DNA of 33,372 bases from Kiritimatiellia bacterium (GTDB lineage Bacteria; Verrucomicrobiota; Kiritimatiellia; B70-G9). The notes below the pieces were generated by a model, which did not search any database, had not been told where the DNA came from, and worked only from the letters and a program-made list of their open reading frames with translations. This document shows positions 5,062-24,659 of the stretch, piece after piece. The first letter of the stretch is position 1. Every line of letters begins with the position of its first letter. A program made the translations under genes and the position numbers. The stretch covers positions 1 through 33,372 of the forward strand of contig DTYT01000041.1 of NCBI GenBank assembly GCA_012961745.1. Direction: 5' to 3'.

Positions 5062-6330
5062 ATGATGGTCGTCGCCATCCTTACGGCATCCCTGTCGCTG
5101 GCCGCCGCCGTGTTCTTCGGCACCCTGTTCCGCGCCTACACCTACACCGGGCGCGCACAGGCCGACCGGCTGGCCGAAAAGTATCCTGCTATGCGACGCA
5201 AGGTGGAATTCTGGGCTCCCCGCTGGGAGGAACTCTGCTCGACTCTGCAATTGCTCATGGTCGCTTCCCGTCTTCTTTTCGTTATTGCTGCCGTCCTGTT
5301 ACTGACCCGTCAGGATGTTTCTCCCTCAGTCTGGCTGGGCGCTGCAGTCGCCTTGAGCCTCTTGTGTCTGTTCCTCCTGGAGCTTCTGCCGGATGCGCTG
5401 GCTGCTGCCTTTTCCGACCGGATCTCAGCCCGGACCCTGCCTCTGACTTCCCTGGTGGCGGTATGTGTCCGTCCCCTTGCCTGGTCCTTGGCCTGCGCTG
5501 CACGACTGTTACGGCGAGCGGTGAGCTCGGGCTCTGTGGAAGAGGACCGGCCCACGCATGAAGAAGCAATCCTCTCCATGGTGGGCCCGGATCAGGACAG
5601 CGATCTGGAAGCCGAAGAAAAGCAGATCATCCGCAGCGCATTGGAATTCAGCGACACGGTGGCACGCGAGATCATGACCCCGCGGGTGGACGTAATTGGA
5701 CTGGAAGATTCCACCCGGATTTCCGAGGCAGTCTCCATCATCAGACGTACAGGCCGCTCGCGGTACCCGGTATTTCACGAGGATATGGATGACATACTGG
5801 GCGTGGTCCACGTGAAAGATCTTCTGGTTCTTCTGGGCGAGGGCAAGGGTTCTTCGCCGGTGATCAGCGCCGTGAAACCGGTGCCCTTCGTCCCCGAATC
5901 CATCCCTATCAGCGACCTGCTCCAGTTGCTCCGGTCTCAGCAGGTACAACTGGCGGTCATCGTGGACGAATACGGCGGAACCTCGGGCGTGGTCACCATT
6001 GAAGACATCCTTGAAGAACTTGTCGGTGAAATCCACGACGAATATGACGTACGCGAAGTCTCCGCGCGCCATCTACCCGATGGCTCCGTAGTCATCAGTG
6101 CCCGGACCCCGGTCTCCGAAGCCAACACCCTCGCCGCCGTTCATATTCCCGAGGGAGAAGACTACGACTCGGTGGGCGGATACATCTTCAGTGTCCTGGG
6201 ACGGATTCCGCGCGCCGGCGAAACGGTAGACGGCGAAGATTTTACCCTCACCGTGCAGGCCGCCGACCAGCGGCAGATTCATCTGGTGAGAATCACTCCG
6301 AAGCACACACCCGCATCTGCCGCAACATGA
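5062..6330 (+). CDS. DUF21/CNNM transmembrane domain + CBS pair + CorC_HlyC domain protein (hemolysin-family, CorC/TlyC-like)
   Basis: N-terminal hydrophobic helices. Then EEKQIIRSALEFSDTVAREIMTPRVDVIGLE (entry into the CBS pair), YPVFHEDMDDILGVVHVKDLL, VIVDEYGGTSGVVTIEDILEELVGEI, and a C-terminal CorC_HlyC-like segment. The ATG at 5062 directly follows the ybeY stop, with AGGAGG 5 nt upstream. Confidence 0.88.
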   Translation: MMVVAILTASLSLAAAVFFGTLFRAYTYTGRAQADRLAEKYPAMRRKVEFWAPRWEELCSTLQLLMVASRLLFVIAAVLLLTRQDVSPSVWLGAAVALSLLCLFLLELLPDALAAAFSDRISARTLPLTSLVAVCVRPLAWSLACAARLLRRAVSSGSVEEDRPTHEEAILSMVGPDQDSDLEAEEKQIIRSALEFSDTVAREIMTPRVDVIGLEDSTRISEAVSIIRRTGRSRYPVFHEDMDDILGVVHVKDLLVLLGEGKGSSPVISAVKPVPFVPESIPISDLLQLLRSQQVQLAVIVDEYGGTSGVVTIEDILEELVGEIHDEYDVREVSARHLPDGSVVISARTPVSEANTLAAVHIPEGEDYDSVGGYIFSVLGRIPRAGETVDGEDFTLTVQAADQRQIHLVRITPKHTPASAAT

Positions 6331-7508
6331 GAATCCCTGCCAGTGGTGATCTGCACCTCACTTTCTGCCTCAACGCCTTCCCCTCCCCTCGCCCGGATGA
6401 CCTGGGACAATACTTCAACCAAGTGCTTCTGCCGATACGGGATCTGTCGGGATGCCAAGACAACCTTGGATGGGGCCTGTGGCTGGACCGGCGATCGGCG
6501 GCCCGACTCGCCGATCCCGTCCGGTCAGCGGCGTTCTGTGCCGGCCTGGCTCGGCATCAATTCTACCTCTTCACGCTGAACGGGTTCCCATACGGTGCGT
6601 TCCACGACTCCCGGATCAAGGAAAAGGTGTTCTATCCGGACTGGACCTCGCCGGAACGCCTGCATTACACACTGGAACTTGCCCGTGTACTCGGTACCTG
6701 TTCTCCACCGGACCGGTTGGGGAGTATCAGCACAGTGCCGCTGGGTGAACGCGCGGCGTTCCACTGCGACCATAAACGACGGCAGGCTGCCGGGATGCTG
6801 GTCCGGGCGGTCGCCGAGCTCGACTCTCTCCGTAAGACTCGCGGCATAACGGTCGTGCTGGCCTTGGAGCCCGAACCCGGAGCAGCCCTCGAAACCGGTG
6901 CCGAAGCCAGCGACTTCATTGAGAAAGTCCTCCTGCCGGAGGCCTCCGTGACAGATGCCGGCTTTGACGATCAGACCGTACTGCGTCACATCGGCATCTG
7001 CGTGGACCTCGCACATGCGGCTGTCATGGAAGAGTCCGTCATGGACCTTGCCGCCGAATGTCACCGGAGAAACATCCGCATCGCCAAGGTCCACATTAGT
7101 GCCGCTGTGTCGTTCCGTCCCACCCGGAGTGCACTGGAGCAGATGCACTTGCTGGCGGATCCGGTTTACCTTCATCAGCTCCGAGCCCGGCTCCCCGACG
7201 GTGGTATCGCCGCATGGCGTGATCTTCCGGATGCCCTCAGGGATCCCCGGCTGCTGGAATGTGACCAGGCGCGGATACATTTTCACGTTCCCCTGACCTG
7301 GCAAGGATCCGGTGATCTCCGTCCGGTGGCGGGTATACCCCCTCCGGAGATCGTGCAAGCCGTGGTCACGGCGGGCTGCCGGCACTTCGAGGTGGAAACC
7401 TACACCTATGCGGTATTGCCCCCCGAGTTGCGCCCTCAATCACCGATATCCGCGGCAGCCGCCGAACTAAGAACGGCCGCCAACCATCTCAAGGGGTACT
7501 ACCACTGA
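6327..7508 (+). CDS. Xylose-isomerase-like TIM-barrel protein, EboE-like
   Basis: The block YLFTLNGFPYGAFHDSRIKEKVFYPDWTSPERLHYTLELARVL matches my recollection of the EboE family signature (NGFPYG.FH...K..V..PDW). The start ATG overlaps the upstream stop (ATGA at 6327-6330). The family assignment is from memory and needs an HMM check. Confidence 0.5.
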   Translation: MRIPASGDLHLTFCLNAFPSPRPDDLGQYFNQVLLPIRDLSGCQDNLGWGLWLDRRSAARLADPVRSAAFCAGLARHQFYLFTLNGFPYGAFHDSRIKEKVFYPDWTSPERLHYTLELARVLGTCSPPDRLGSISTVPLGERAAFHCDHKRRQAAGMLVRAVAELDSLRKTRGITVVLALEPEPGAALETGAEASDFIEKVLLPEASVTDAGFDDQTVLRHIGICVDLAHAAVMEESVMDLAAECHRRNIRIAKVHISAAVSFRPTRSALEQMHLLADPVYLHQLRARLPDGGIAAWRDLPDALRDPRLLECDQARIHFHVPLTWQGSGDLRPVAGIPPPEIVQAVVTAGCRHFEVETYTYAVLPPELRPQSPISAAAAELRTAANHLKGYYH

Positions 7509-8778: not shown

Positions 8779-9939
8779 CTATTCGTTTTCTTCAGCAGGG
8801 GACACCGCTGGAAATATGAGACGGACCCGGGTGCCCTGATTGGGCCGACTTTCTACTTCAATGCGGCCGGAATGCTGCTCCACAATTTTCCTGGCGATAG
8901 CCATACCCAGTCCCATCCCGCCTCCTGCAGCCCGCGTGGTGAAATACGGCTCGAAGAGCCGCTGCATCACTTCGGCTGGCATGCCCGGGCCAGTGTCCTC
9001 CACGCATATCTCCACTTCACCATCCACTTTCCTCGTCATTACCCTTACTTCACCCGCCGTGGTGGAAGCCGCCTGGATGGCATTGGTGACTACATTGTGG
9101 ATCGCCCGCAGAAGCTGGCCGCGATCCCCGATGATATGCGGTACGCTTTCCCCGGTCTCGAACACCGGGTGGGGTGGAGAGCCCGCCTGCACGAAATTTA
9201 CGGCCACCCGAACGTCTTCGAGCAACTGCGCCGGATGGATTTTCTCCCGGCGCCTGCCGAGCTCGCCTTCCCGCCACATTGCAGCTAGATCCCGGCAGCG
9301 CCGTACGTTGTTCTCAATGATCTGTAGGTAGCGCAAGGCTTCCTCCCAATCCCCGTGCTCATTCTGCGACTTCTTCTCCAGTTCATCGGCAAGCATCTCC
9401 GTGTACCCGATAATGGTAGTAAGAGGGTTCCTCAGGTCGTGCAGTAACTCTGCTGATGCCTCTCCCAGCCGTGCCAGTTTTTCCAGGCGCGCCTTCTCCT
9501 CCACGGTGCGCCGGTTCAGCTCCCGCAGCTCCGCGATCAGCCGCAGCTTCTGCCGCTCGCGGCGCGTCCGTTCCACGTTTCGACGTACGACCCGCACCAT
9601 CTCGTGGGTATCAAAGGGCTTCGTTATATAGTCGGTGGCACCCAAGCGCAGGGCCTGCTGCGCGGTTTCCAAGGTGCCGTATCCGGTCAACACGATAACC
9701 GAAATCCGCCGGTCGATTTCACGTATTCTAGCCAGCCCCTCTATACCGTTCGTCCCCGGCATCCGGATGTCGATCACCACGGCATCGGCACCCAGATCCT
9801 GCAGCAGGCGGGCACCTTCATCCACGTTTGACGCAAGCAGTACATTGAATTGCTCCTTGAGAATGATCCTCAGGCTCTGGCGGGGTCCTTCTTCATCGTC
9901 GATCACCAACACTCGAGGTCGGTCAATGGTGGCCATCAT
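8779..9939 (-). CDS. Hybrid two-component protein: N-terminal receiver (REC), coiled-coil linker, HisKA and HATPase_c
   Basis: REC: RVLVIDDEEGPRQSL...DAVVIDIRMPGTNGIEGL...VIVLTGYG...DYITKPFD. H-box ELLHDLRNPLTTIIGYTEML. N/G boxes IHNVVTNAIQA and VEDTGPGMP...GGGMGLGMAIARKIVEQHSG. ATGATG at 9939/9936 is preceded by AAGGGAGGATA (strong SD). The longer ORF-track start at 10176 adds a Cys/His-rich leader and is not supported. Confidence 0.85.
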   Translation of the reverse strand: MMATIDRPRVLVIDDEEGPRQSLRIILKEQFNVLLASNVDEGARLLQDLGADAVVIDIRMPGTNGIEGLARIREIDRRISVIVLTGYGTLETAQQALRLGATDYITKPFDTHEMVRVVRRNVERTRRERQKLRLIAELRELNRRTVEEKARLEKLARLGEASAELLHDLRNPLTTIIGYTEMLADELEKKSQNEHGDWEEALRYLQIIENNVRRCRDLAAMWREGELGRRREKIHPAQLLEDVRVAVNFVQAGSPPHPVFETGESVPHIIGDRGQLLRAIHNVVTNAIQAASTTAGEVRVMTRKVDGEVEICVEDTGPGMPAEVMQRLFEPYFTTRAAGGGMGLGMAIARKIVEQHSGRIEVESRPNQGTRVRLIFPAVSPAEENE

Positions 9940-9984
9940 TATCCTCCCTTTCCGTGCCATCACGATGGATTGCCTACCGCTTGT

Positions 9985-10007: not shown

Positions 10008-10094
10008 TGTGCGCGCAGCGGTGAGCACAAGCGATGCCAATACGAAATTGTCCAGATATGGGGGGGGAATTTGGAACTACCCCACATCTTGTGC

Positions 10095-10124
10095 TTGACG
10101 GTGTGCAAAAATGTAAACTATGAA
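10095..10124 (+). promoter_or_regulatory. Candidate sigma-70-type promoter for the KAS-like/kinase operon (TTGACG-N18-TATGAA)
   Basis: TTGACG at 10095-10100 and TATGAA at 10119-10124, within the only AT-richer stretch of this intergenic region. It sits about 37 nt upstream of the GTG at 10161. This is sequence pattern only, and the promoter consensus of the host is unknown. Confidence 0.35.
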
Positions 10125-10160
10125 CAAAAGCGTACAGGCAGGACGGGGAACCCCGGCACG

Positions 10161-11387
10161 GTGATAACACGCACACCAGTCATAACCGGCATTGGCGTAG
10201 CGGCGCCGAACGGGCTCGGACTGGACCGGTTCTGGAAAAATACACTTCAGCGGAAAAGTGGCGTGACTACCGTATCCCTCTTCGGCGCCGAGGGCCTGCC
10301 GTGTCGCATTGCGGGCGAAGTGTCCGAACTACGGGAAAATGACTGTACCCTACCACCGGGCCTGACACGCGCAACCCTCTTGGCCTTGCACGCTGCCCGA
10401 CTCGCCCTGACGGATGCCCGGCTGGTCCGCGAGCACGCCCCTGAAGATGAACCGGTACCGGTAATACTCGGTACAAGTACCGGCAGCCCGGAACCCCTCC
10501 CCAGGCAGTGGCCCTCCGATAAAGGTGCCGACGATGAATTTGTATACCAACCCGCTTGCACTTCACCGCAAGCCCAGGCCGTCTGGTCTATCCAGCGCCT
10601 CGGTGATCTCAATGGCCCCGTAGTCACCCTCTCAGGCGGCTGGACCGCGGGCCTTGAGGCTGTATCACTCGCTGCCGAATGGGTTCGGATGGGACGCTAC
10701 CGTATCGCGTTGGCGGGCGCCGTGGAAGCCCCACTGTCACGGCGCGTACTGGAGTCTTTCCTTGAATCCGGCGGGCTGGCCGCCCGCGCGGATCCCGAGG
10801 GGGTTCCCCGTCCCTTTGATCGTGACCGGGACGGCTGGGTTCTCTCGGAAGGTGCCGCGGTTGTCGTCGTGGAATCCGCGACATCTGCATGGGCGCGGGA
10901 AATGCAGCCTTATGCCTGTGTCGCCGGGTGTTATTCGTCTGGCGGTCGCAAGTATTCTGACATGGCCGAATCCCTCGCGCAGGCGATCCGAGGATGCCTT
11001 GCGGAGGCTTCCCTGCTGCCGGAACACATCCAGTACGTCTGCGCCAACGCCACTGGCGAGCGTACCACGGATGTGGCTGAAATCGCCGCTCTGAAACGGG
11101 CTTTCGGCAGGCACGCCTACCGATTGGCGATCAGCTCTATCAAGGGAGTCGTCGGTAATCCACTGGCCGCGGCCGGCCCTATGCAGGTCGCGGCGGCTGC
11201 CATGAGCATCCGTGAAAAACGTATTCCTCCTACTGCCAATCTGCGGGAGCCCGATCCCCAATGTGATCTGGACTGCGTGCGGGACCGGGCGCGACAGGTG
11301 GCGGTGCGCGCCGCGCTCGTCAATGCGCATGGCCGGGATGGAAACAGTCGCTGCATAGTCATGACCACCGCGGAGGGTACTGCATGA
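10161..11387 (+). CDS. Beta-ketoacyl-ACP synthase (FabF/FabB-fold) homologue lacking the Cys-His-His catalytic triad; predicted pseudoenzyme
   Basis: KAS blocks are retained: VITGIGVAAPNGLG, CRIAGEV, RPFDRDRDGWVLSEGAAVVVVES, SSIKGVVGNPLAAAG and IPPTANL.EPD..CDLD. The nucleophile position reads TLSGGWTAG (TGG at 10641-10643). The first His position reads CANATGE (AAC at 11046-11048). The second reads VGNPLAAAG (AAT at 11157-11159). The GTG at 10161 gives the usual short leader before VITG. The stop overlaps the next start (ATGA at 11384-11387). Confidence 0.8.
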   Translation: MITRTPVITGIGVAAPNGLGLDRFWKNTLQRKSGVTTVSLFGAEGLPCRIAGEVSELRENDCTLPPGLTRATLLALHAARLALTDARLVREHAPEDEPVPVILGTSTGSPEPLPRQWPSDKGADDEFVYQPACTSPQAQAVWSIQRLGDLNGPVVTLSGGWTAGLEAVSLAAEWVRMGRYRIALAGAVEAPLSRRVLESFLESGGLAARADPEGVPRPFDRDRDGWVLSEGAAVVVVESATSAWAREMQPYACVAGCYSSGGRKYSDMAESLAQAIRGCLAEASLLPEHIQYVCANATGERTTDVAEIAALKRAFGRHAYRLAISSIKGVVGNPLAAAGPMQVAAAAMSIREKRIPPTANLREPDPQCDLDCVRDRARQVAVRAALVNAHGRDGNSRCIVMTTAEGTA

Positions 11388-13888
11388 TCACGGCATGGCT
11401 GCTCTTCGGGATGGTTTTGGTCAATCTGACCGTAGCCTTGACAGTATACCTTACTAATCCCCGACGAGGCGCGAACCGTGCTTTTCTCATACTCGGCATG
11501 CATATGGGACTGTGGTCGGCATCCTCGCTGTTCTTGGTTTCGGCCAGCTCCCTCCGCGAAACTGAAATGTGGTTACGCACCTTCTTTGGCCTGGCGGCGT
11601 TCTTCCCGACATCCTTCACAATACTCTACCAGGCGGTCAAACTGGACGCCGACCGGCTGACCGAACCGGCAGTGCGCTCTCGGCTGCTTGCGTTTACCGG
11701 CGTAGTAGCCGCGGTGGCGGCATTTCATCCGGCATTTCTCAGTCTGCTGCATCCTCGGGAGGCCTCCGAGCTGCCTCCGGACGGTGTGCGATTCGGTCCC
11801 CTGTTCGTTTTCTACGGACTTTATCTCGTTCTGAGTGGAATAGTAGGAATCCTTTGCTTTCTCAGGGATAATCGCAGGACACAGGGAATCCGGCGTACCG
11901 AAATCCAGTACGTGGCTGCCGGATTCGCCTCCGCTTTCGCTATCGGTATCACTACCGTGATATTCATTCCCTATCTCTCCGGCCGTCCGCAGGGCGTCCT
12001 TTGGGGACCGGTGGTGGCCTCCGCGGCGTTGAGTCTGGTGGTGGCCTACGGCATAGCAACTACCAATATCATGGATGTATCCCAACTCATGCGGCGTATT
12101 TTTGGTTATGCACTGCTGCTGTTGTCCCTCTCCGGGTTGTACGCCCTGGTGCATCTGGTCGTCGCCCTCCTCCAGAGCAGAACCGGTTCCGATGCGCTCT
12201 GGCTGCCAGCCTTTGTGGCGGTGCTGGTTGTGGCGGCCTCGATGACTCCCGCCCAGGGCATTATGCGCCGACTCGCCCGCCGCCTTCTCATTTCTCCCCG
12301 GGAGGTCAATATTTCGCGGGCGATGGCGGCTGCGGGAGAAGTGATGTCTCCCGTCTCGACCGTGGACCGGCTGCTCTTGCGGTTCGCGAACGTAATCCAC
12401 GAGTATTTCGCCGCGTCGCACGTGGCGATCCTGATACGCAAAGGCAACGGCTTCGCGCAGGTCCAGCCTTCCCAACCCCGGGGTGGCCGCCCACTGCTGT
12501 ACCTGCCCGCGAGTGACCCGCTGATCCGGCACCTTCAGTCTTCGGGTTCCATTGTCAGCCGCCCTACCCTGCGACGACGCGGATCGGATGACCGCGCCGT
12601 ACTTCTGGCGAAACTGACCATGCTGAAAGCCGAACTCGCCGGGGGGATATCCGTGCGCGGCCGCCTGCAAGGCATCCTGCTGGTCGGTCCCCGTCCGGGT
12701 GGCGCAGTCTTCACCCGGCTGGAGCGGGTGGCCTTCCAACTTCTTCTGGGACAACTCGGGATCGCCCTGGAGAATGCGCTGTTGTATACCGAAGTACAGA
12801 ACAGCAAGATCTACAACGAAATCCTTCTCGAACATCTCCCTTCGGGAGTCATTGCGGCCGATAAGGCCGGCCGGATTACCGTTTGCAACCGGGAAGCGTG
12901 CCGGATCCTGAACGTGCAAAGGAACACTGTATTGGGACGAGCCCTGACTGCCATACCCCAGCCGTTGCACGCCCTGATGGACGATGTAATCCGAAGCGGC
13001 CGTGAGGTGCGGGACAAGGAAATTGTCCTCCCCGCAGGGGGAACCGAGACCCCGCTGCGCGTGGGTGGCGCGCGGGTTCACAATGACCGCGGCAGGCTCC
13101 TGGGAACCATCTTCACCCTCAGCGACCTGAGCCGGGTGAAGGAGCTGGAACAACAGGTACGCCGCTCCGACCGGCTGGCCAGTGTAGGAACGCTCTCTGC
13201 GGGGATGGCCCACGAAATCAAGAATCCCTTGGTGGCTATCAAGACCTTCGCACAACTGCTTCCGGAAAGATACAATGAACCCGACTTCCGGGAGACCTTC
13301 TCCCAGCTTCTACAAAAGGAAGTCGAACGCATCGACGACATTGTCACCCAGCTGCTGAACTTTGCACGCCCACGCAAGGTGGCTTCCGAACTTTGTCATC
13401 TCCATGAAGTCATCCGCCGGTCCCTGAAACTGATCCAGCAACAGGTGGAAAAACGCAACATCTCGCTGGAATGCCGTTTGGATGCCCCCCGTGATGCGAT
13501 CCGGGGAGACCATGCCCTGCTGGAACAGACGTTCCTCAATTTCTTCATTAACGCCATGGAAGCGATGAACCATAGGGGCAGCTTGAGCGTGACCAGCGAT
13601 CTCCTCGAAGACCCCGGGCACGACCACGACCCTTCCCATATTCGCGTGCGTGTACAAGACAGCGGACAGGGTATCGCACCGGAACATATCGAGCGGATCT
13701 TCGATCCTTTTTTCACCACCAAAGAAAACGGTACCGGGCTCGGTCTCTCTGTGGCTCATGAAATAATAGAGGAACACGGCGGGAGCGTGGAAGTAAGCAG
13801 CCGCCTCGGACAGGGAACCACTTTCACTCTGGTATTTCCCTTAGCTGAACAATGCATTGCTCCCGGACCCGACCAGGATGAATGCTGA
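11384..13888 (+). CDS. Membrane sensor histidine kinase: N-terminal multi-TM (HisKA_7TM-like) domain, GAF/PAS-like regions, HisKA and HATPase_c
   Basis: About 7 hydrophobic helices occupy the first 300 aa or so (NRAFLILGMHMGLWSASSLFL...). PAS-like segment LEHLPSGVIAADKAGRITVCNREACRILN. H-box GMAHEIKNPLVAIKTFAQLLPERYNEPDFRETF. N box FLNFFINAMEAM. G boxes VQDSGQGIAPEHIERIFDPFFTTKENGTGLGLSVAHEIIEEHGG. GGAGGG lies 7-12 nt upstream of the ATG. Confidence 0.88.
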   Translation: MITAWLLFGMVLVNLTVALTVYLTNPRRGANRAFLILGMHMGLWSASSLFLVSASSLRETEMWLRTFFGLAAFFPTSFTILYQAVKLDADRLTEPAVRSRLLAFTGVVAAVAAFHPAFLSLLHPREASELPPDGVRFGPLFVFYGLYLVLSGIVGILCFLRDNRRTQGIRRTEIQYVAAGFASAFAIGITTVIFIPYLSGRPQGVLWGPVVASAALSLVVAYGIATTNIMDVSQLMRRIFGYALLLLSLSGLYALVHLVVALLQSRTGSDALWLPAFVAVLVVAASMTPAQGIMRRLARRLLISPREVNISRAMAAAGEVMSPVSTVDRLLLRFANVIHEYFAASHVAILIRKGNGFAQVQPSQPRGGRPLLYLPASDPLIRHLQSSGSIVSRPTLRRRGSDDRAVLLAKLTMLKAELAGGISVRGRLQGILLVGPRPGGAVFTRLERVAFQLLLGQLGIALENALLYTEVQNSKIYNEILLEHLPSGVIAADKAGRITVCNREACRILNVQRNTVLGRALTAIPQPLHALMDDVIRSGREVRDKEIVLPAGGTETPLRVGGARVHNDRGRLLGTIFTLSDLSRVKELEQQVRRSDRLASVGTLSAGMAHEIKNPLVAIKTFAQLLPERYNEPDFRETFSQLLQKEVERIDDIVTQLLNFARPRKVASELCHLHEVIRRSLKLIQQQVEKRNISLECRLDAPRDAIRGDHALLEQTFLNFFINAMEAMNHRGSLSVTSDLLEDPGHDHDPSHIRVRVQDSGQGIAPEHIERIFDPFFTTKENGTGLGLSVAHEIIEEHGGSVEVSSRLGQGTTFTLVFPLAEQCIAPGPDQDEC

Positions 13889-15923
13889 GCCCACAACGTG
13901 TGTCATTTACAGCGCCGACCGATACTGGAGCCGGCGCCTGGCCGCAGAATTGGCTCTTCACGATGTGGATGTCACGATATCCTCTGACCGTCGCAGACTC
14001 TTAAGGAAAATTGATAGCGGCCACAGCAGCGCGGTGGTGGTGGATCTGCTTTCGCCCGGCTCGCTGCAATTGGTGCGCATGCTGTTGCAGCACCGACCGG
14101 GCCTGCCGGTCATCGCCTGCGGAAAGACCCGCACATCTCCCTTTATGGATGCACTCCACACCGGGATCTTTGCCGCGCTCGACCGCGGCGGACCGATTCA
14201 ATCCATCGCTTCGGTAGTCAGGTCGGCATTGATGTTCCGCCCTGAGACTTCTCCGGGAACGAAACCAACCTCGGAAGGCGAAAAGCAGCTCGACGACACC
14301 GCCGGGTCTCCGGCAACCATCCCCGCGCTGCTACCATCCCCCGGGCTCTTTCTGCATAACCCCACGCCCGAAGCGTTAACCGCTTATCTGGAGGCCTGGC
14401 TGCAGGCCCTATCCGCGCGATTCGGTGTGCTTCGCAGCAGCCTGTTCCTCAAAGACCCGGATACCGGCGAGTTCGCCGCGGCAATCACCATCAACTGCAC
14501 ACCCGAAATCAGGGAAACGAAGCTGCGGCCTGACGCGGGTCTGCCGACATACCTGGAAAAAGAGGCAACCACCCTGATCAGCGGCAGCGCACCGCGTCTC
14601 CTCGCCAGCCAGCTTGCCCGTATCGGCGCGGATCTTGTCGTGCCCCTGCTGGGGGATGATGGCCTGATCGGGTGGGCTGGCCTGTCCCGCCCCGCGGATG
14701 GTTCACACTGGGACGCCAACCGGCGCCGTGAGATAGCAGGCGAGTTCGTCCGCATGGCCGGCTTCCTCACACAAAGCCAGCAAGCGGCCGTCGCGGACTC
14801 GCTGGAACCGGCAATACAGGTGTTCGGGGAGGCTCTCGCCTGCGGGCTGGTAGCGGTGGACAGCAAAGCGCGCATCATTTTCATTAATCCAGTGGCGGCC
14901 CGCCTGCTGGACCTTCAGCCGGATATCGGCCCGGGAAGCGAGATCGAAGCCCTTGGCACCACGATGGCCGACATGGTCTACCGGGCGCTGGCAGGTGAGA
15001 GGGTCGAACGCAGGTTCAATGTCCCTGGCCGACCGCAGATTCTCATTCTGGCGCAGGTACTGCCGGTAGTGCGTTCGGGACGCCGTATGGCCGTTGCTGT
15101 ACTTCGCGAGATAATCCCCGAGGTGCCATCTGAAGAATCTCCCACGCCAGAGGGGGGCCCCAAGGAGGTTGTCGACGAAGACATCGTATGGGAGCAGGTG
15201 GCCGAAGGGCTCGCCCATCAGATCCGCAATCCGCTGGTGGCCATCAAGACTTTCGCCCAGCTCCTGCCGGAACGCTATCAGGACCCGGACTTCCGCACGG
15301 AGTTTGGCGTACTGGTCAACCGGGAAGTCGAACGGCTCAACGGCCTTCTCAACAGCATCGCCGCTCTGGGCCGCCCGCTGCAACCGAACCGGCGGCCGGT
15401 AGATATCCATATGCTGATAAAGCGCGGGCTGAACATGGCCCTGGTTCGCAACAAGCGGGCACCCCTCAAGAAAATCGAAGTCCACGTGCCGGATCATCTG
15501 CCGCGTATACCGGCGGACGAGGAAATGCTCACCGAGGCCTTCGTTCAACTGTTCACCAATGCTATCGAAGCCGCGACGCAGAGAAAGATGCCGCGCATAA
15601 GCGTCAGCGTGCAGGTGTGTGCCCCCCCGGACAGTGGATTGATTGGCATACAGATCGAAGACAACGGGCCCGGAATACCGGAAGACGTCCGCAAGTTTCT
15701 GTTCTCGCCGTTCTGTGGCACCAAGGCCCACGGGCTGGGATTCGGGCTGTGCATCGCCCGGCGTGCGATACGTGCCCACGGCGGCACTATAGAAATTGCC
15801 AGTTCCCGCGCCGGCACCCAGGTCTTCGTGAAACTTCCCTTTGGAGCCCAGAAGCCTGAAACACCCAGCACCCAGCGGAGGTCGCAACGAAATGAAGAAC
15901 AAGCACCTGCTGATCGTGGATGA
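13878..15923 (+). CDS. Cytoplasmic sensor histidine kinase: degenerate receiver-like N-terminus, GAF/PAS-like regions, HisKA and HATPase_c; paralogue of the preceding kinase
   Basis: No hydrophobic helices. The N-terminus has a REC-like layout (CVIYSAD...SSAVVVDLLSPGSLQLVRML...PVIACGKT...FAALDRG) with an incomplete acidic pocket and the conserved Lys position changed. H-box GLAHQIRNPLVAIKTFAQLLPERYQDPDFRTEF. N box FVQLFTNAIEA. G boxes IEDNGPGIP and GLGFGLCIARRAIRAHGG. The ATG at 13878 overlaps the upstream stop by 11 nt; the ORF-track start at 13857 is a TTG. Confidence 0.85.
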   Translation: MNAEPTTCVIYSADRYWSRRLAAELALHDVDVTISSDRRRLLRKIDSGHSSAVVVDLLSPGSLQLVRMLLQHRPGLPVIACGKTRTSPFMDALHTGIFAALDRGGPIQSIASVVRSALMFRPETSPGTKPTSEGEKQLDDTAGSPATIPALLPSPGLFLHNPTPEALTAYLEAWLQALSARFGVLRSSLFLKDPDTGEFAAAITINCTPEIRETKLRPDAGLPTYLEKEATTLISGSAPRLLASQLARIGADLVVPLLGDDGLIGWAGLSRPADGSHWDANRRREIAGEFVRMAGFLTQSQQAAVADSLEPAIQVFGEALACGLVAVDSKARIIFINPVAARLLDLQPDIGPGSEIEALGTTMADMVYRALAGERVERRFNVPGRPQILILAQVLPVVRSGRRMAVAVLREIIPEVPSEESPTPEGGPKEVVDEDIVWEQVAEGLAHQIRNPLVAIKTFAQLLPERYQDPDFRTEFGVLVNREVERLNGLLNSIAALGRPLQPNRRPVDIHMLIKRGLNMALVRNKRAPLKKIEVHVPDHLPRIPADEEMLTEAFVQLFTNAIEAATQRKMPRISVSVQVCAPPDSGLIGIQIEDNGPGIPEDVRKFLFSPFCGTKAHGLGFGLCIARRAIRAHGGTIEIASSRAGTQVFVKLPFGAQKPETPSTQRRSQRNEEQAPADRG

Positions 15924-17298
15924 CGAGGCCAGCACGCGCGAGTCGCTGCGGATGGTCTTCGAAAAGGATTATGCCGTATCGCTGGCCACGAGTGCCGCCG
16001 AAGCCCGACAAATAGTGGCCCGAAGCAATATCGACCTGGTTCTGCTGGACATAATCATGCCAGATGTCGACGGCATCACGTTCCTTCACGAACTCCACAC
16101 CGAATACCCCGACCTCCCGGTGGTGATGATAAGCGCCGCTTCATCCGTAAAGCGGGTGGTGGAAGCCATGAAGGAGGGTGCCTGGGATTATGTGACCAAG
16201 CCTTTCGATGTGGCCGAACTGCGCCACATCGTCTCGCGGGCCCTCGAAAACTCCCGGCTCAGGAGAAAACTGCATGAACTACAATGTGAAGTGGCCGAGG
16301 AGTTCCCCGTAGACCGCATAGTAGGGAATGCGCCTTTGTTTGCCCAGGCTCTCCAGGTTGTCCGCAAGGCCGCCTCAACCGATTCCACCATCCTGATCAT
16401 CGGTGAAAGCGGTACGGGGAAGGAATTGATCGCTCGTTTGGTTCACCGGCTGAGTCCCAGACGGGATGAACCGTTCGTCCCGGTGCATTGCGGGGCGATT
16501 CCGGAACAGCTGATGGAAAGCGAACTGTTCGGCTACGAAAAAGGCGCTTTCACCGGCGCCGACCGCCGCAAGCCCGGTCGTTTTGATATGGCCGGATCGG
16601 GAACCATCTTTTTCGACGAGATAAGTGAAACGCCGCATTCCGCACAGGTAAAGCTGCTCCGTGTACTGCAGGAGCGGGAGTTCGTCCGGGTAGGTGGCTC
16701 AGAGGTGGTCCGGACCGACGCGCGCATAGTCGCCGCAACCGCACAGAATCTTGAGAAACTGGTCGAGCAAGGCCGCTTCCGACGGGACCTCTTCTACCGG
16801 CTGAGCGTGGTGCCGGTGCGTCTGCCTCCCCTCCGCAATCGGCGGGAGGATATTCCCCTGCTGGCACAGTACTTCCTGAACTACTTCGGCCGCAAGGTCG
16901 GTTCCCGCCTAAGCAGTATCGACCGCGACGCCATGCGCCTGCTCCTGCGCTATGACTGGCCCGGCAACATCCGGGAACTACGCAACCTCATCGAGCGAAT
17001 GGCCGTACTGCACCGTGACCAGGATATGTTGCAGCCGGAGTTTCTACCGGAAGAATTCCATGTCCAGAACCTGTTTGCCCCCCTGCACGCCGGAACCTTC
17101 ACACTGGAGGAGGCAGTCAACGACTTCGAGCGTCATCTGGTGATCGACGCTCTCAAGAAAGCCGGCGGAGTGCAAACGCGCGCGGCTGAGCTGCTGGGAA
17201 CAACCCGCCGCATACTGAAGTACCGGATCGAGAAACTCAACATCCAACCGCAGGACTTCCGCCCCACCGTATCGTCTCCCCAGAAGGAGCGTCCCTGA
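15892..17298 (+). CDS. Sigma-54-dependent response regulator (NtrC-family enhancer-binding protein: REC, AAA+ and Fis-type HTH)
   Basis: REC: HLLIVDDEASTRESL...DLVLLDIIMPDVDGI...VVMISAASS...DYVTKPFD. AAA+: ILIIGESGTGKELIARLVH, the GAFTGA loop ESELFGYEKGAFTGA, and WPGNIRELRNLIER. HTH: TRAAELLGTTRRILKYRIEKL. The ATG at 15892 has a GGAGG 10 nt upstream and overlaps the upstream kinase by 32 nt. Confidence 0.93.
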   Translation: MKNKHLLIVDDEASTRESLRMVFEKDYAVSLATSAAEARQIVARSNIDLVLLDIIMPDVDGITFLHELHTEYPDLPVVMISAASSVKRVVEAMKEGAWDYVTKPFDVAELRHIVSRALENSRLRRKLHELQCEVAEEFPVDRIVGNAPLFAQALQVVRKAASTDSTILIIGESGTGKELIARLVHRLSPRRDEPFVPVHCGAIPEQLMESELFGYEKGAFTGADRRKPGRFDMAGSGTIFFDEISETPHSAQVKLLRVLQEREFVRVGGSEVVRTDARIVAATAQNLEKLVEQGRFRRDLFYRLSVVPVRLPPLRNRREDIPLLAQYFLNYFGRKVGSRLSSIDRDAMRLLLRYDWPGNIRELRNLIERMAVLHRDQDMLQPEFLPEEFHVQNLFAPLHAGTFTLEEAVNDFERHLVIDALKKAGGVQTRAAELLGTTRRILKYRIEKLNIQPQDFRPTVSSPQKERP

Positions 17299-17309: not shown

Positions 17310-18536
17310 TCAGATCCCCCCTTCTATGAAGCCTCGAGCCGTGGCAAAAGCCCTGTCCAGATCTTCTCCGCGATCCAGTGAGGCCACGAGCACCGCCGGC
17401 ACGCGGCTGCGTCGCTTCAGCGCCGGCATCAGACGCTGCAGTGTATTCCGAATTTCCCGGCGATTCCGCCAGCCATCCAGGATCAGGCGGGCAAAGGTTT
17501 CCTCCGTAAAGCGGGAAAAGCCGAGACAGTATGCGGACAATTCCAAGGTCTCCATGAAATGGGCGAGCTTTGGCTGATACTCCAGCGCCACCACCGGGGT
17601 CAGCTCGCCGGCCGCCATGATGGCACAATGCAGACGCATCGCACAGACCATGTCCACTCGTCCAAGGACCCCCTTGACCACGTAGTGGTCGTAATCGGCA
17701 TTACTCAGCAACGCCCGCCTGTTCGGCAGCCGCACCATTGACATAAGGCGGCGGGTCACTTCCACATCCATGTACTGCGTGCAAACGAACACCACGTCCG
17801 CCCCGATCTCTTCCAGCGCACGGTTCAAGCCTGCCGCATAGATGTCCAGAACCTTCTCGCCCAGCTGTAGAGACCCTTCCGCCCAACTGTCGAAGTATCG
17901 GTTGATATTCACCGCCAGAATCGGACGATCGCGATTCAGTCCCCTTTCCTCCATCACTCGCTCGACCACTTCCGCAGGAGCCGGACACACGTCCAGCGCC
18001 GCGTCAGCTCCCAAAAGCACCCGGCTGTTCTGCACACCCAGCTCCTCCATGATTCGCAGGGATGCCCGGTCACGCACGGTTACGAAGTCCATCAATTCCA
18101 GCAATCCTCTCAGCATGCGCCGCCCGGCTCGCGTCGAGACCGGCCCCACACCGATATCATAGCACCCCAAGAGCTTCCCGCGGCGCTTGACCGCCGGCAG
18201 CATCGCGTACAGCGACGACATGAAATTGAAAAGCGGATTATATAATTCCCGATCAAACAGAATCGCATCGAATACCAGCGTCAGGTCGGTCCGCATCATC
18301 GAACGCCAGGTGGGCAGCCCCAGCATTTTCAGCGACAGGTGCCAAGGCATCATGGATACCGGACGGGTGCGATTGGGATAATGTTTCCGGATATAGGAAG
18401 GGCGAATGGTCGGTATCTCATACAGCACCCTGCGCCCGCAGGCCTCATCTATCGCCGCCATAAGGCCGGCGAGCAAGGCGGCATCGCCGGCATTGCGGCC
18501 CGAGGAACTGCCCAGCAGCGTTAGGCTGCCAATCAC
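17310..18536 (-). CDS. Polysaccharide pyruvyl transferase family protein
   Basis: The N-terminus LTLLGSSSGRNAGDAALLAGLMAAIDEA is typical of PS_pyruv_trans (CsaB/WcaK-like) proteins, as are the length and the C-terminal MRLHCAIMAAGELTPVVALEYQPK. The GTG start overlaps the upstream stop (GTGA at 18533-18536). Confidence 0.7.
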   Translation of the reverse strand: MIGSLTLLGSSSGRNAGDAALLAGLMAAIDEACGRRVLYEIPTIRPSYIRKHYPNRTRPVSMMPWHLSLKMLGLPTWRSMMRTDLTLVFDAILFDRELYNPLFNFMSSLYAMLPAVKRRGKLLGCYDIGVGPVSTRAGRRMLRGLLELMDFVTVRDRASLRIMEELGVQNSRVLLGADAALDVCPAPAEVVERVMEERGLNRDRPILAVNINRYFDSWAEGSLQLGEKVLDIYAAGLNRALEEIGADVVFVCTQYMDVEVTRRLMSMVRLPNRRALLSNADYDHYVVKGVLGRVDMVCAMRLHCAIMAAGELTPVVALEYQPKLAHFMETLELSAYCLGFSRFTEETFARLILDGWRNRREIRNTLQRLMPALKRRSRVPAVLVASLDRGEDLDRAFATARGFIEGGI

Positions 18537-19369
18537 TGCACCGCTCCGCTTGACCGGTTCGTTTCCGGCCCAGTGGCTCGTTTACGTCTGGCAAGCCGCA
18601 GAAGCCGTAAGGCCACCTCCCCCGCACCAGGACGCTCACCCACCACACCTACTCCACCGGAGACCTCCAGCAAACCACGACGCAGCGATGTCACCGGCTG
18701 ACAGGGATCAAACCCGGTAGGGACATGCGTGGCCGGGCTTCCTACGTATCTCTCCTCGCCGGGTAAGGGAAGCGAATCAGACCCTGCGGCCACCACGTAT
18801 CCCGCCCCCCGTGCCAGTTTCAGTAGTCCGGGAAGCGGACTGCTCCGGGGTAACAAGGAGCTTACCGAAAGAACAAACTTCCCCGGGATATAGGCGTCGA
18901 TCAGGTTGCGGATCTGTCGCCCGCGCCGGAATGTCCACTTGCCGGGAGACCATGGCAGCACGGGAATCCCCCCCCTCTCGCGGATAGCGTTGAGCAGATA
19001 GTCAACAGCGTGTCCCGACGGGAGATCGCTTTCCGTGCCTACTTCCAGTATTTCCAGAGCCTCATAGGTGACCATCTGCCTGCCCGGAATCAGCAGCAGC
19101 TCGCCGCCCGAGGGGGAAGATACCCTGGCCGCACCCTCCTGATGTTCCTCCACCGAATAGCCGCCTCCTTCCAGGGAAACCTGTATCCGCTCCACCATGC
19201 CGCTGAAACTGCCCTTACCGGTAGTCAGCACACACAGCACCCCGCACCAGTCATCCTCCTCTCCGGTGCGGTGGGCCGCCTCCTGCAGGTTCTGCATGGC
19301 CGCCTCTATCCATCGAGGGATGGCGAAACAATCATACAAGTGAACATGAATGTCCGCGAGGACCCGCAT
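18533..19369 (-). CDS. Uncharacterised protein with an N-terminal D-x-H-x-H metal-hydrolase-like motif (amidohydrolase/TatD/PHP superfamily-like)
   Basis: It starts MRVLADIHVHLYDCF, which is the D.H.HL.D pattern of metal-dependent hydrolases, and has a later AAGSDSLP. The ATG at 19369 has an AGAGGAG SD. It is coupled to the pyruvyl transferase. The coding call is solid; the functional call is weak. Confidence 0.6.
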   Translation of the reverse strand: MRVLADIHVHLYDCFAIPRWIEAAMQNLQEAAHRTGEEDDWCGVLCVLTTGKGSFSGMVERIQVSLEGGGYSVEEHQEGAARVSSPSGGELLLIPGRQMVTYEALEILEVGTESDLPSGHAVDYLLNAIRERGGIPVLPWSPGKWTFRRGRQIRNLIDAYIPGKFVLSVSSLLPRSSPLPGLLKLARGAGYVVAAGSDSLPLPGEERYVGSPATHVPTGFDPCQPVTSLRRGLLEVSGGVGVVGERPGAGEVALRLLRLARRKRATGPETNRSSGAVQ

Positions 19370-19496
19370 CCCGAAAACTCCTCTGCCATAATCAGGCCCT
19401 TATTGCCCCGTGAGATGCGGCTTGGCAAGAAATAATGAGCCGACTTTCTTCTTTTCCCCATACGTCCACTCCACTAGTCTCCTGGCGCAAGTCGCG

Positions 19497-20507
19497 ATGC
19501 ACGCAAACGACGTACAACCAAGACCGGAAATCAATCTGGTAACGGGGGCCAGTGGATTCGTGGGCAGCGCCCTGGTGGACTACTTGCACAGATTGGGGCG
19601 CCCTGTGCGGGCGATGGTACGTAATCCGGCCGCCGTGCCGCCGCTGCGGGCCAGGGGTATCCCTGTCACCGTGGCGGACCTGCACGACTATCAGTCCTTG
19701 CTCAAGGCGGTACAAGGTGTCGATTACATCTACCATATCGCTGCTCTTTTCCGCCAAGCAGGCCTTCCCGAGCGCGAATTCTACGAGGTAAACGCGGAGG
19801 GGACACGCCGACTTCTGGAGGCCGCCGTAGCCGGGGGAGTCAGGCGCGTGGTTCACTGCTCCACCGTGGGAGTCCTGGGACACATAAACAATCCGCCGGC
19901 CGATGAAGAGGCCCCTTATAATCCCGGCGATGTCTACCAGCGCAGCAAGATGCAAGGTGAAAAGATCGCCCTGCAATATTTCCGCAGCGGAAAAATTGCG
20001 GGAGTAGTGATCCGTCCGGCGATGATCTACGGACCGGGTGACCGGAGAACCCTGAAACTCTTCCGCATGATCGCCCGGCGCAGGTTCTTCTACGTGGGAT
20101 CAGGGGAGCTGGAGGTACACTTCGTCGATGTGCGGGACTTGGTCCGGGCTTTCGTAATGGCCATGGATCGTGAGGAAATCTCCGGCGAAGTATATATCAT
20201 TGCGGGGGAACGCGCCCTGCCCCTGCGCGAAATGGTGGAAATTGTCGCCCGCGAACTGGGGGTGGCCCCGCCGCGATGGCACCTTCCTGTACGTCCCCTG
20301 CAATGGCTCGGCAGTATCTGCGAAAGCGTCTGTATCCCTCTGCACATCCAGCCGCCCATCTTTCGCCGCCGCGTAGACTTTTTTACCAAACGCCGCTCAT
20401 TCGACACCTCCAAGGCCGCGCGCGAGCTAGGGTATTCTCCCGCCAAGTCGGTTGAAGAGGAAGTCGCGGAAATCATTGCGTGGTACCGGCAACATGGCTG
20501 GCTGTAA
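19497..20507 (+). CDS. NAD-dependent epimerase/dehydratase (extended SDR family)
   Basis: Rossmann motif INLVTGASGFVGSALVDYL. Catalytic YxxxK in DVYQRSKMQGE. Also VVIRPAMIYGPGD. The ATG at 19497 gives a standard N-terminus. The ORF-track start at 19410 is a GTG with an atypical 29-aa leader. Confidence 0.85.
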   Translation: MHANDVQPRPEINLVTGASGFVGSALVDYLHRLGRPVRAMVRNPAAVPPLRARGIPVTVADLHDYQSLLKAVQGVDYIYHIAALFRQAGLPEREFYEVNAEGTRRLLEAAVAGGVRRVVHCSTVGVLGHINNPPADEEAPYNPGDVYQRSKMQGEKIALQYFRSGKIAGVVIRPAMIYGPGDRRTLKLFRMIARRRFFYVGSGELEVHFVDVRDLVRAFVMAMDREEISGEVYIIAGERALPLREMVEIVARELGVAPPRWHLPVRPLQWLGSICESVCIPLHIQPPIFRRRVDFFTKRRSFDTSKAARELGYSPAKSVEEEVAEIIAWYRQHGWL

Positions 20508-20514
20508 ATGCCCG

Positions 20515-21315
20515 CTAGCGGAAATCTCCGGTGGCGGCACCAACCCGCAGGAACTTACGCTCATCTCCGAATTCCAACCATACTCCCCGGTTGCCAACCA
20601 AAAGAACCCGTACACCCTCGACCATATCACCGCCGCCGACAATCCGACCGTTGACGATCGCCGCCGACGCTCCGCCCGCCTGGCGGATGATACCGGACAC
20701 CTGCAACGGCGGCCACACAGGCGACCTTCGGGATGGAACCGGCTGTACCGGCTCCCCGGATACCGCTTGTGGTTCTTGCACAGCGACCGGAGGTTTCCGG
20801 GAGGCTGCTTCCGGGAGTGCCTGGCGGGCTGCAACTGCGGCAGTCGCCGCAGAGGCAGGATCACCTTCAGGAGATGTGCGGGTCCGCCCCGATGTCGATT
20901 TCGCTTCCCCCGCGGACAGATCCGGAGCCACCGGCGCCGCCTGTCGCCCCGCCGGCTCTGCAGGTGCAGGCTCCGCTGGCGGCGCCGCGGAAGAACCCTT
21001 CGGATGAACCGCCTCCGCCAGAGTCCCGGATATCGCCTCTAGCGGTTCCTCCTTCACCGGCTTCGAGACCACCGCCGCTTTTCCGGAGCCCAGACGCGGC
21101 AAGGCACGCACAATGAACAGGAGCAATCCCACTGCACTGGCCGATACTACAAGCACCAGGATCAGAACCGACAGGAGCGCGAGCCACTCTTTACGGGATG
21201 AATCCGTGGCAGCAACTACGGGCTCAGACGGAGCTTCCGTCCGATCTCCCGGAGACTCAGGCGGTCGGCCGCCATCCGCTTCCCGGCGCCGTAAGGCCTC
21301 CTGGATCAGACTCAT
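20515..21315 (-). CDS. GspB/ExeB-like protein (N-terminal MSLIQEAL motif, one TM, Pro/Ala-rich linker, C-terminal GspB-type domain)
   Basis: The N-terminus MSLIQEALRRRE resembles the MSYILDAL.K.E opening of GspB/ExeB. TM helix WLALLSVLILVLVVSASAVGLLLFIV. The C-terminus LQVSGIIRQAGGASAAIVNGRIVGGGDMVEGVRVLLVGNRGVWLEFGDERKFLRV matches the GspB C-terminal pattern (L.L.G......A.ING..V..GD...G..V..I....V.L). The start overlaps the upstream stop (ATGA at 21312-21315). Confidence 0.65.
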   Translation of the reverse strand: MSLIQEALRRREADGGRPPESPGDRTEAPSEPVVAATDSSRKEWLALLSVLILVLVVSASAVGLLLFIVRALPRLGSGKAAVVSKPVKEEPLEAISGTLAEAVHPKGSSAAPPAEPAPAEPAGRQAAPVAPDLSAGEAKSTSGRTRTSPEGDPASAATAAVAARQALPEAASRKPPVAVQEPQAVSGEPVQPVPSRRSPVWPPLQVSGIIRQAGGASAAIVNGRIVGGGDMVEGVRVLLVGNRGVWLEFGDERKFLRVGAATGDFR

Positions 21316-22121
21316 CTCACCAGTTCCAAGTGCTGCAGGCTGCGCTTGACTTCTCTCAATCCGACGAGGAGCGACCTGTTCACGAACCCCGCCAACATTG
21401 CGTGGTCTGCGATGGTGTTGATCAGGCGCGGTATGCCGCCGGAATACCGGTGGACCAGCCTTATTGCCCGTCGCTCGAAAACCACCCGGGAATCCGCCCC
21501 AGCCACTCTTAACCGGTGCGCGATGTAGCTGGCGGTTTCTTCTTCGGTCAGCGGTCCGAGGTGAGCCCGTACGATAACCCGCTGGCGCAGTTGCCGAAGA
21601 TCCGGTGAGGCCAGCTTCCTTTCCAGCTCAGGCTGTCCCACGAGCACAATCTGCATCAGCTTATGCTGATCGGTCTCCAGGTTGTTGAGCAGTCGGATCT
21701 GTTCAAGCACCGTGGGTGCAAGATCCTGAGCCTCATCTATAATGAGCGCCACGTTGTTTCCAGTCGCGAGCTGTTCCAGGAGAAAGGCATTAAGCTGATT
21801 GATCTGACTCAAACGGTCACGGCTCCGGGGCACCAGCCCGAAATCCTGAAGAATCGCCCGCAATAACTGGGTTTCGGTCATGGCAGGATTCAGGATCAGA
21901 GCGGTACGGGTGTTGGACGGCAAATCGGCCAGCGCTGCCCGACACAGGGTGGTTTTCCCCGACCCGACTTCCCCGGTCAGCTGGATGAATCCGCGTCGGG
22001 TCTCGATGCCGTACAGCAAATGGTCGTACGCCTCGCGATGGCTGGAGGAAAAGAAGAGAAAACGCGGGTCAGGAGTTATATTGAAAGGCGGCTCGCTCAA
22101 CCCATAGAAATCGAGGTACAT
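21312..22121 (-). CDS. ExeA/GspA/MshM-type AAA+ ATPase (short form with no peptidoglycan-binding domain)
   Basis: MYLDFYGLSEPPFNITPDPRFLFFSSSHREAYDHLLYGIETRRGFIQLTGEVGSGKTTLCRAAL is the classic ExeA/MshM N-terminus with Walker A. Walker B is ALIIDEAQDL. Also QIVLVGQPEL and VHRYSGGIPRLIN. Confidence 0.85.
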   Translation of the reverse strand: MYLDFYGLSEPPFNITPDPRFLFFSSSHREAYDHLLYGIETRRGFIQLTGEVGSGKTTLCRAALADLPSNTRTALILNPAMTETQLLRAILQDFGLVPRSRDRLSQINQLNAFLLEQLATGNNVALIIDEAQDLAPTVLEQIRLLNNLETDQHKLMQIVLVGQPELERKLASPDLRQLRQRVIVRAHLGPLTEEETASYIAHRLRVAGADSRVVFERRAIRLVHRYSGGIPRLINTIADHAMLAGFVNRSLLVGLREVKRSLQHLELVR

Positions 22122-22142
22122 CTGCCCATCCGTCTATCCCAT

Positions 22143-22171
22143 CTCATACTCACAGATCTGGTCGGCGTCAA
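22143..22171 (-). promoter_or_regulatory. Candidate internal sigma-70-type promoter upstream of the ExeA-like gene (TTGACG-N17-TATGAG on the minus strand)
   Basis: On the minus strand, TTGACG lies at 22171-22166, followed by a 17-nt spacer and TATGAG at 22148-22143. This is about 22 nt upstream of the ATG at 22121. Pattern only. Confidence 0.3.
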
Positions 22172-22197
22172 CGGTAAGTTCTGTCCCGGCATGGCGG

Positions 22198-24619: not shown

Positions 24620-24659
24620 CTGTCCTGTTCGGAACGGACCACAACGCCTTCCCGCTTGT

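Follow-up and report, generated by a model that had tools for sequence, protein, structure and literature searches.

The best-known nucleophile-less homologue of the β-ketoacyl synthases (KSs) is the chain-length factor (CLF, or KS-β) of type II polyketide synthases (PKSs), in which Gln replaces the nucleophile Cys and which pairs with KS-α as a heterodimer. A second departure from the canonical active site is seen in the non-elongating KS0, a domain within multimodular trans-AT PKSs in which the Cys is kept and the His of the HGTGT motif is absent. Signalling systems in which a gene for an enzyme of lipid-metabolism type lies beside that of a polytopic membrane histidine kinase include CqsA/CqsS, LqsA/LqsS and RpfF/RpfC, and in DSF signalling RpfF physically binds the kinase RpfC. 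Additionally, hydrocarbon sensing of the TodX/TodST type combines a FadL-family channel with a two-component system. A change from nucleophile Cys to Trp is known from the ATL proteins, which sense without catalysis and then hand over to their partner proteins (PMC10779285).

The window analyzed here, a stretch of 33,372 nt from a member of the Kiritimatiellia, contains an intact open reading frame that begins with GTG at 10161, ends with TGA at 11387 on the forward strand and encodes a KS-like protein of 408 aa, which shares features with each of these systems and coincides with none of them (Table 1). It has the fold and length of FabF/KAS II, but its gene lies in a kinase operon, not in a fab cluster, and it lacks the Cys, the first His and the GFGG loop, while the second His is Asn as in its whole family. 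Like a CLF, it is a full-length KS homologue without the nucleophile Cys, kept for what would be a non-condensing role; however, the Cys position holds Trp and not Gln, polyketide tailoring genes are missing from the locus, and neither the partner KS nor the ACP beside which a CLF is encoded occurs in the loci inspected. As a free-standing protein that has lost its Cys, it does not correspond to KS0 either. The arrangement of the CqsA/CqsS, LqsA/LqsS and RpfF/RpfC genes is reproduced here, but the enzymes of those systems have PLP-dependent or crotonase folds, unlike the present protein, which is without catalytic residues. Relatives with an intact Cys and His have a Toluene_X/FadL-family gene in the divergent operon, which recalls TodX/TodST, although such systems have no ketosynthase-like component and the channel gene has been lost from the Trp-bearing clade (W clade) to which the protein belongs. 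The W clade resembles the ATL proteins in being presumably inactive yet conserved, with Trp for the nucleophilic Cys; fold and process (DNA repair) are unrelated, and the comparison is one of analogy only.

Table 1. Features of the KS-like locus, in positions of the window
Feature	Position	Strand	Basis or remark
Divergent hybrid receiver-histidine kinase (REC-HK), REC - HisKA - HATPase	8779..9948	-	domain matches
Sigma-54-type -24/-12 element, TGGCAT-N5-GTGCT, facing the REC-HK gene	10024..10039	-	conservation in W-clade loci
Conserved element with TGTNCA repeats, ~55 nt, just 5' of the KS-like gene	10084..10142	+	conservation
FabF-fold KS-like protein, W161/N296/N333	10161..11387	+	homology, alignments, AF2
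Residues 106-150, equivalent of FabF cap/acyl-pocket helices	10476..10610	+	least conserved segment within the W clade
W161 (TGG), at the FabF C163 (nucleophile Cys) position	10641..10643	+	HMMER, MAFFT
N296 (AAC), at the FabF H303 position	11046..11048	+	HMMER, MAFFT
N333 (AAT), at the FabF H340 position	11157..11159	+	alignments
HGRDGN, residues 390-395, degenerate equivalent of the GFGG gating/oxyanion loop (FabF F400)	11328..11345	+	alignment
HK1 sensor kinase, HisKA_7TM - PAS - HisKA - HATPase	11384..13888	+	domain matches
HK2, second histidine kinase	13857..15923	+	likely start ATG 13878
Sigma-54-dependent response regulator, REC - AAA+ - HTH_8	15841..17298	+	likely start ATG 15892

The assignment of the fold is supported by several comparisons. 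Both PF00109 (3e-26) and PF02801 (2.8e-24) are matched over the full length of the domains, and HMMER comparison with solved FabF structures returns those of Bacillus subtilis (4ls5) and Synechocystis (1e5m) at E values of about 1e-52, with 4ls5/4ls8 as the best matches in sequence and structure alike (E 3e-52, TM 0.88). An AF2 model computed from a family alignment of 26 sequences (pLDDT 86.9, pTM 0.90) superimposes on FabF structures with TM scores of 0.86-0.88, which places the protein within the thiolase-type KS fold. The KS/CLF pairs 1tqy, 6smo and 6kxd are also matched by Foldseek and phmmer. The top NCBIfam match is fabF (TIGR03150), whose score of 227.8 bits falls well below the curated cutoff of 493.75, and no NCBIfam model specific for the protein or its family was found.

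Within this fold, the positions of the Cys-His-His triad are occupied by Trp, Asn and Asn, and the equivalences obtained with HMMER are reproduced by a MAFFT alignment with E. coli FabF and 120 homologues. The GFGG loop with its Phe400 is likewise missing, and the sequence that stands in its place varies inside the W clade. By contrast with these losses, the equivalents of FabF Lys335, Asp311 and Glu314 are kept, with K328 as the catalytic Lys, as are the PPTxN and CDLD motifs, and the active-site shell residues K328, D304, E307 and N333 are invariant. With the loss of the nucleophile, of the first His and of the GFGG loop, the protein has very likely given up canonical condensation, a judgment made on sequence grounds. 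The protein thus fits the description of a pseudoenzyme, that is, an enzyme homologue under purifying selection whose catalytic residues have disappeared.

The relatives of the protein put these substitutions in context. The 120 best matches in a set of 5.8 billion proteins belong to Kiritimatiellae, Lentisphaerota and Verrucomicrobiota, and in the resulting alignment of 122 sequences with E. coli FabF, the nucleophile position is Cys in 117, the H340 position is Asn in 117, and the H303 position holds His in 93 sequences and Tyr in 22, while the F400 position is either His or Arg. The active site of the family is therefore normally C-H-N with His at 400, or C-Y-N with Arg at 400. The Asn at the H340 position is found family-wide, Cys-bearing members included, as part of the motif SIKGxxGNP; the protein of the window carries SSIKGVVGNPLAAAG, which fits the more specific family motif SIKG[VA][TVL]GNP. 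A scan for the latter in species-representative genomes yielded 246 relatives, distributed over Chthoniobacterales, Verrucomicrobiae, Kiritimatiellia, Lentisphaerae/Victivallales and Pontiellaceae, together with one Omnitrophota MAG.

The W clade is a small part of this family: phmmer, run exhaustively against 1.84 billion cluster representatives, found just three 50%-identity clusters of it. In addition to the protein of the window and a 99% identical copy, it includes sequences that are 81% (P0002; W, N, N), 51% (P0003; W, W, N) and 45% (P0005; W, W, N) identical to it. The motif VTLSGGWTAGL around W161 is kept in all of these lineages, and all members of the family outside the clade have the nucleophile Cys, so that Trp is the derived state by parsimony, outgroups and other members alike having Cys. 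An NJ tree placed the W clade outside the other two clades, a placement that is unreliable in view of its long branches and single outgroup. As judged from the alignments, the catalytic center of W-clade proteins holds one or two Trp residues, the second being found at the H303 position of the two deeper lineages. A Cys-bearing paralogue could be present elsewhere in the genomes of the clade.

These comparisons modify what the first-pass annotation had proposed, which was a full-length FabF/FabB-type homologue with its whole catalytic triad replaced. The homology and the identity and codons of the three residues are borne out, and the loss of condensation is supported as very likely. It is correct that all three positions differ from FabF, but some 200 relatives that keep the Cys all have Asn at the H340 position, and the ancestral triad was consequently C-H-N and not C-H-H; the change from His to Asn is a family trait that lies outside the inactivation, since it is common to all Cys-bearing relatives. 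What is specific to the W clade is only the change of Cys to Trp, that of His to Asn or Trp, the decayed GFGG loop and the decayed pocket-cap segment. A check of the orthologues for conservation of all three residues found the Trp kept and N333 invariant, but position 296 either Asn or Trp.

The genomic context is equally characteristic. The stop codon of the KS-like gene overlaps the ATG of HK1 as ATGA (11384-11387), in agreement with the earlier description of an intact frame tightly coupled to its neighbor, and the gene thus lies upstream of an overlapping HisKA_7TM-PAS kinase, with a divergent REC-HK gene on one side and a second histidine kinase further along on the other. HK2 has no Pfam match to any membrane domain, and in its H-box it hardly differs from HK1. 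The kinases and the regulator match the AtoS/AtoC, ZraS and PrsK/PrsR models only below the NCBIfam cutoffs, so that they cannot be assigned to any of these systems. Apart from the kinases and the sigma-54 regulator, the neighbors in the window and in annotated related loci are a chorismate synthase gene and EPS genes. The 33 kb contain neither an ACP nor a second KS, nor any other gene of fatty-acid or polyketide synthesis, and the related loci inspected are likewise without an ACP or second KS.

The same arrangement recurs throughout the family. Three other W-clade lineages have an identical gene order that extends to the flanking chorismate synthase gene, and Cys-bearing members of about 40% identity share the order too, often with a FadL/Toluene_X gene between the REC-HK and KS-like genes. 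In a collection of 88 loci (L001-L088, eight inspected individually and eighty from the motif scan), all 75 that allow the downstream gene to be called have HK1 after the KS-like gene, and 71 of the 75 have HK2 as well. Of the 88 loci, 70 carry a divergent REC-HK gene on the upstream side, and no second KS was detected in any. The converse scan, seeded with the N-terminus of HK1, gave 72 metagenome loci whose upstream DNA was long enough, and 71 of them have a KS-like gene, the lone exception being an AT-rich contig (L093). Of 124 loci, 89 show a 4-nt or 1-nt overlap between the stop of the KS-like gene and the start of HK1, and in 116 the two are no more than 40 nt apart. Judged by gene order, members of the family throughout the PVC group, with the Cys or without it, are obligately associated with a 7TM histidine kinase, and the protein of the window is a divergent, nucleophile-less member of this kinase-linked family. 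The first-pass annotation had recognized the kinase neighborhood, which is indeed conserved in the other W-clade lineages, but had missed that the partnership is obligate and family-wide. Gene order and translational coupling are also compatible with functional links other than physical contact.

Three sub-types can be distinguished when active site and context are considered together. The C-Y-N/R sub-type (55 loci) has neither a FadL gene nearby nor an adjacent sigma-54 regulator, and the C-H-N/H sub-type (27 loci) has both in most cases. In the W clade (five loci and the window), no FadL gene is found nearby, and the sigma-54 regulator is adjacent in four of the five loci and in the window.

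The intergenic region upstream of the KS-like gene contains two conserved elements. A loose sigma-54 pattern occurs 16 times in the whole window against 15 expected, which is not above chance, and the support for the intergenic site comes from its conservation in related loci. A stricter motif was found in all seven W-clade loci, in 23 of 45 C-H loci and in none of 87 C-Y loci, a distribution that parallels the clades in which a sigma-54 regulator is adjacent. In about half of the Cys-His relatives, the sigma-54-type promoter faces the channel gene and, as predicted from its position, would drive FadL together with REC-HK; this placement points to a hydrophobic-compound channel as part of the module's output. 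The second element, with TGTNCA repeats, could represent a promoter, operator or enhancer-binding site. A simple scan of the intergenic region for sigma-70 promoters and terminators returned nothing, and an Rfam scan of the window gave no match.

The gene is maintained by selection. Comparison of the window with the 81% identical relative gives a dN/dS of 0.18 for the KS-like gene at an unsaturated dS of 0.62, on par with the adjacent kinases (0.195 for HK1 and 0.25 for HK2), which indicates that the protein is maintained; the corresponding values for the regulator and chorismate synthase are 0.06 and 0.10. The Trp is kept in all W-clade lineages, down to 45-52% identity and dS above 1.9. A decaying pseudogene, against which the first-pass annotation had also argued, is ruled out by this omega value and by the intact orthologues, with synteny kept.

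Maintenance is nevertheless uneven along the protein. The KS-like protein of the W clade is relaxed and evolves faster than its Cys-bearing relatives: with HK1 identity matched at about 0.55-0.58, that of the KS-like protein amounts to 0.46 in the W clade, compared with 0.63 in the C-Y and 0.70 in the C-H clade. The relaxed segments are residues 31-45, 106-150 and 391-405, the last of which carries the GFGG loop, whereas residues 46-60, 151-165 (with VTLSGGWTAGL), 211-225 and 346-390 are conserved to the same degree as in the C-H clade or more highly. In the AF2 model, pLDDT drops below 50 at residues 109-134, which may partly reflect the small number of W-clade sequences in the alignment; a Cys-bearing control (P0004) modeled from the same alignment reaches 95.2 overall and has the equivalent stretch modeled as confident helices. 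The 7TM, linker and PAS regions of HK1 are not relaxed in the W clade, so that the decay concerns only the catalytic apparatus of the KS-like protein.

Taking these observations together, we lean, with rather modest confidence, towards the reading that this FabF-fold protein is catalytically dead and serves as a regulatory or scaffold subunit of the kinase module. The family would be a dedicated component of a multi-kinase two-component module of fixed gene order, in which a divergent REC-HK gene, with or without a FadL-type outer-membrane channel, is followed by the KS-like gene coupled to the 7TM-PAS histidine kinase, and then by a second kinase with or without the sigma-54 regulator. In the W lineage, the nucleophile Cys was replaced by Trp and the first His by Asn or Trp, after which constraint was lost at the oxyanion/gating loop and the acyl-pocket cap, the remaining fold staying under purifying selection. 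The KS-like protein would then act on HK1, HK2 or both by protein-protein contact and not by chemistry or acyl binding, a mode of action for which the ATL proteins, with Trp for the nucleophile Cys, set a documented precedent. The Trp may plug the pocket, and such an aromatic plug in the active site may lock one conformational state, possibly one like the acyl-enzyme form of the Cys-bearing relatives. The homology, the residue equivalences, the conserved order and coupling of the genes, the selection and the relaxation specific to the clade are shown by the data, whereas kinase contact, absent activity and state mimicry are elements that we infer.

Several other readings have to be weighed against a regulatory or scaffold subunit. 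The protein may be a non-catalytic ligand sensor whose old substrate tunnel binds an acyl chain, an acyl-ACP or a related lipid, with occupancy reported to the kinases. The retention of the fold, as judged from the AF2 model and its TM scores to FabF, would suit this function, as would the invariance of K328, D304, E307 and N333 in the active-site shell and the FadL-type channel gene that often adjoins the relatives. However, it is the pocket cap and the gating loop that are least constrained, the cap segment is without a confident AF2 model, the catalytic center is occupied by one or two Trp residues, and the FadL gene is absent from all W-clade loci. The binding of acyl groups, lipids or ACP, which had been suggested at first, is consequently the less likely role, and a ligand sensor is considered unlikely.

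Less probable again is a descent from a signal synthase, an idea that draws on the CqsA/CqsS and LqsA/LqsS systems, with their synthase gene beside a polytopic membrane kinase. According to this analogy, the Cys-bearing relatives would make a hydrophobic signal for the 7TM kinase, and the W lineage would only listen, its dead synthase being kept because it also binds and tunes the receptor kinase, as RpfF binds RpfC. Outside the W clade the Cys never varies, and positions 303 and 400 change together (H/H versus Y/R), which suggests a working active site in the relatives, and the 7TM and linker regions of HK1 are as constrained in the W clade as elsewhere. Against it, no ACP, thioesterase or acyl-activating gene lies beside the family genes in the loci inspected.

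It is very improbable that the protein serves as a CLF-like partner, forming a heterodimer with a catalytic KS encoded elsewhere and shaping its product. The matches to the KS/CLF pairs 1tqy, 6smo and 6kxd, and the position of CLFs as the classic nucleophile-less KS homologues, point in this direction, but the 33 kb and the annotated related loci contain no KS, ACP or PKS/FAS gene, the neighbors are always kinases, and the substituted residue is Trp rather than Gln. Identity with a CLF proper is ruled out by the gene context. The least probable reading is that the protein is still an enzyme that uses non-canonical residues for a different reaction, for although K328, D304, E307 and N333 are kept and the gene is under purifying selection, the nucleophile and the general base are gone, the oxyanion loop is degenerate, and positions 296 (Asn or Trp) and 390 (His, Cys or Leu) are unfixed within the W clade, which argues against a defined new active site.

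To our knowledge, nucleophile-less KS homologues are known only as partners of active KSs (CLFs and KS0 domains), and the locus described here holds such a homologue without a partner KS beside it. Literature searches on the kinase-linked KS-like family found no paper, nor was a curated model found, and the family appears to be undescribed so far. The annotation "beta-ketoacyl-ACP synthase family protein" is misleading for all of its members. The W clade provides a ready comparison of catalytic-looking and dead versions of the same protein, which makes the question directly testable. A broader reading, put forward only tentatively, is that these proteins form a hitherto unrecognized FabF-fold class of accessory or input subunits of histidine kinases, widespread in Verrucomicrobiota, Kiritimatiellia and Lentisphaerae, through which a multi-kinase network, in many lineages with a sigma-54 regulator, would respond to lipid or acyl-thioester status or else to a self-made lipid signal. 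The Trp clade would then be a natural "catalysis-off" mutant, and would show that the essential job of the family is allosteric kinase control and not synthesis. If it is true that the family informs kinases, it would represent a new type of input device for two-component systems and a new fate for the condensing-enzyme fold.

Two conserved elements lie in the intergenic region upstream of the KS-like gene, and their coordinates are collected in the table together with those of the other features considered here. The element that faces the divergent REC-HK gene is of the sigma-54 type, with its GG and GC elements invariant across all loci of the W clade, in which Trp occupies the nucleophile position. 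The strict -24/-12 motif was found in 7 of 7 W-clade loci, in 23 of 45 C-H loci and in none of the 87 C-Y loci, a distribution that parallels the occurrence of the adjacent sigma-54 regulator. The second element is strongly conserved among W-clade loci even though their proteins are otherwise only ~50% identical, and similar TTGTNCA motifs were found repeatedly in C-H loci; it may represent an enhancer-binding or operator site.

Features of the window
Feature	Coordinates	Strand	Remarks
Stand-alone EboE homologue	6327-7508	+	NF035939, 302.6 bits (cutoff of 250 exceeded)
Sigma-54-type -24/-12 element	10024-10039	minus	TGGCAT-N5-GTGCT, directed at divergent REC-HK gene
Intergenic element, ~55 nt	10084-10142		TGTNCA repeats and TTGAC box, directly 5' of KS-like gene
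HK1	11384-13888	+
HK2	13857-15923	+
Exopolysaccharide-type block	17310-24766	minus
PilS-like protein	26182-27489	minus	6TM-PAS-HisKA

The C-Y clade, represented by 55 species mainly from Chthoniobacterales and Verrucomicrobiae (loci L008, L010, L011, L016, L019-L022 and others), lacks FadL and the adjacent sigma-54 regulator at its loci. Its proteins carry Tyr at the first catalytic His and Arg at the position of FabF F400, whereas those of the C-H clade carry His at both, so that two active-site residues have changed jointly while the Cys is retained. Among the loci with sufficient upstream DNA, an HK1-type kinase without a KS-like gene was encountered only once (L093, 1-1395), on an AT-rich contig in which no long ORF was detected upstream of the kinase.

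Within the kinase module, the H-box and DHp segment is near-identical between HK1 and HK2 (H[EQ]I[KR]NPLVAIKTFAQLLPERY) and differs from the version in the divergent REC-HK, a pattern suggesting that HK1 and HK2 may address a common target regulator or form heterodimers.

Elsewhere in the window, the EboE homologue is flanked by a CNNM/CorC gene and chorismate synthase, an arrangement shared by the related loci L001 and L002, and no further recognised ebo-cluster genes were identified within the window. The PilS-like gene, in whose product Pfam detected no HATPase domain, adjoins T2SS/T4P genes of the GspF-like and GspE/MshE-like types.

The exopolysaccharide-type block encodes a pyruvyl transferase, a TPR protein, an ABC-2 transporter, two proteins without a family match and a homologue of the XrtA/PEP-CTERM-associated ATPase (295 bits, slightly below the cutoff of 324.5). 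In every W-clade locus the kinase module is directly followed by the pyruvyl transferase gene, which makes the exopolysaccharide-type block a candidate target of that module.
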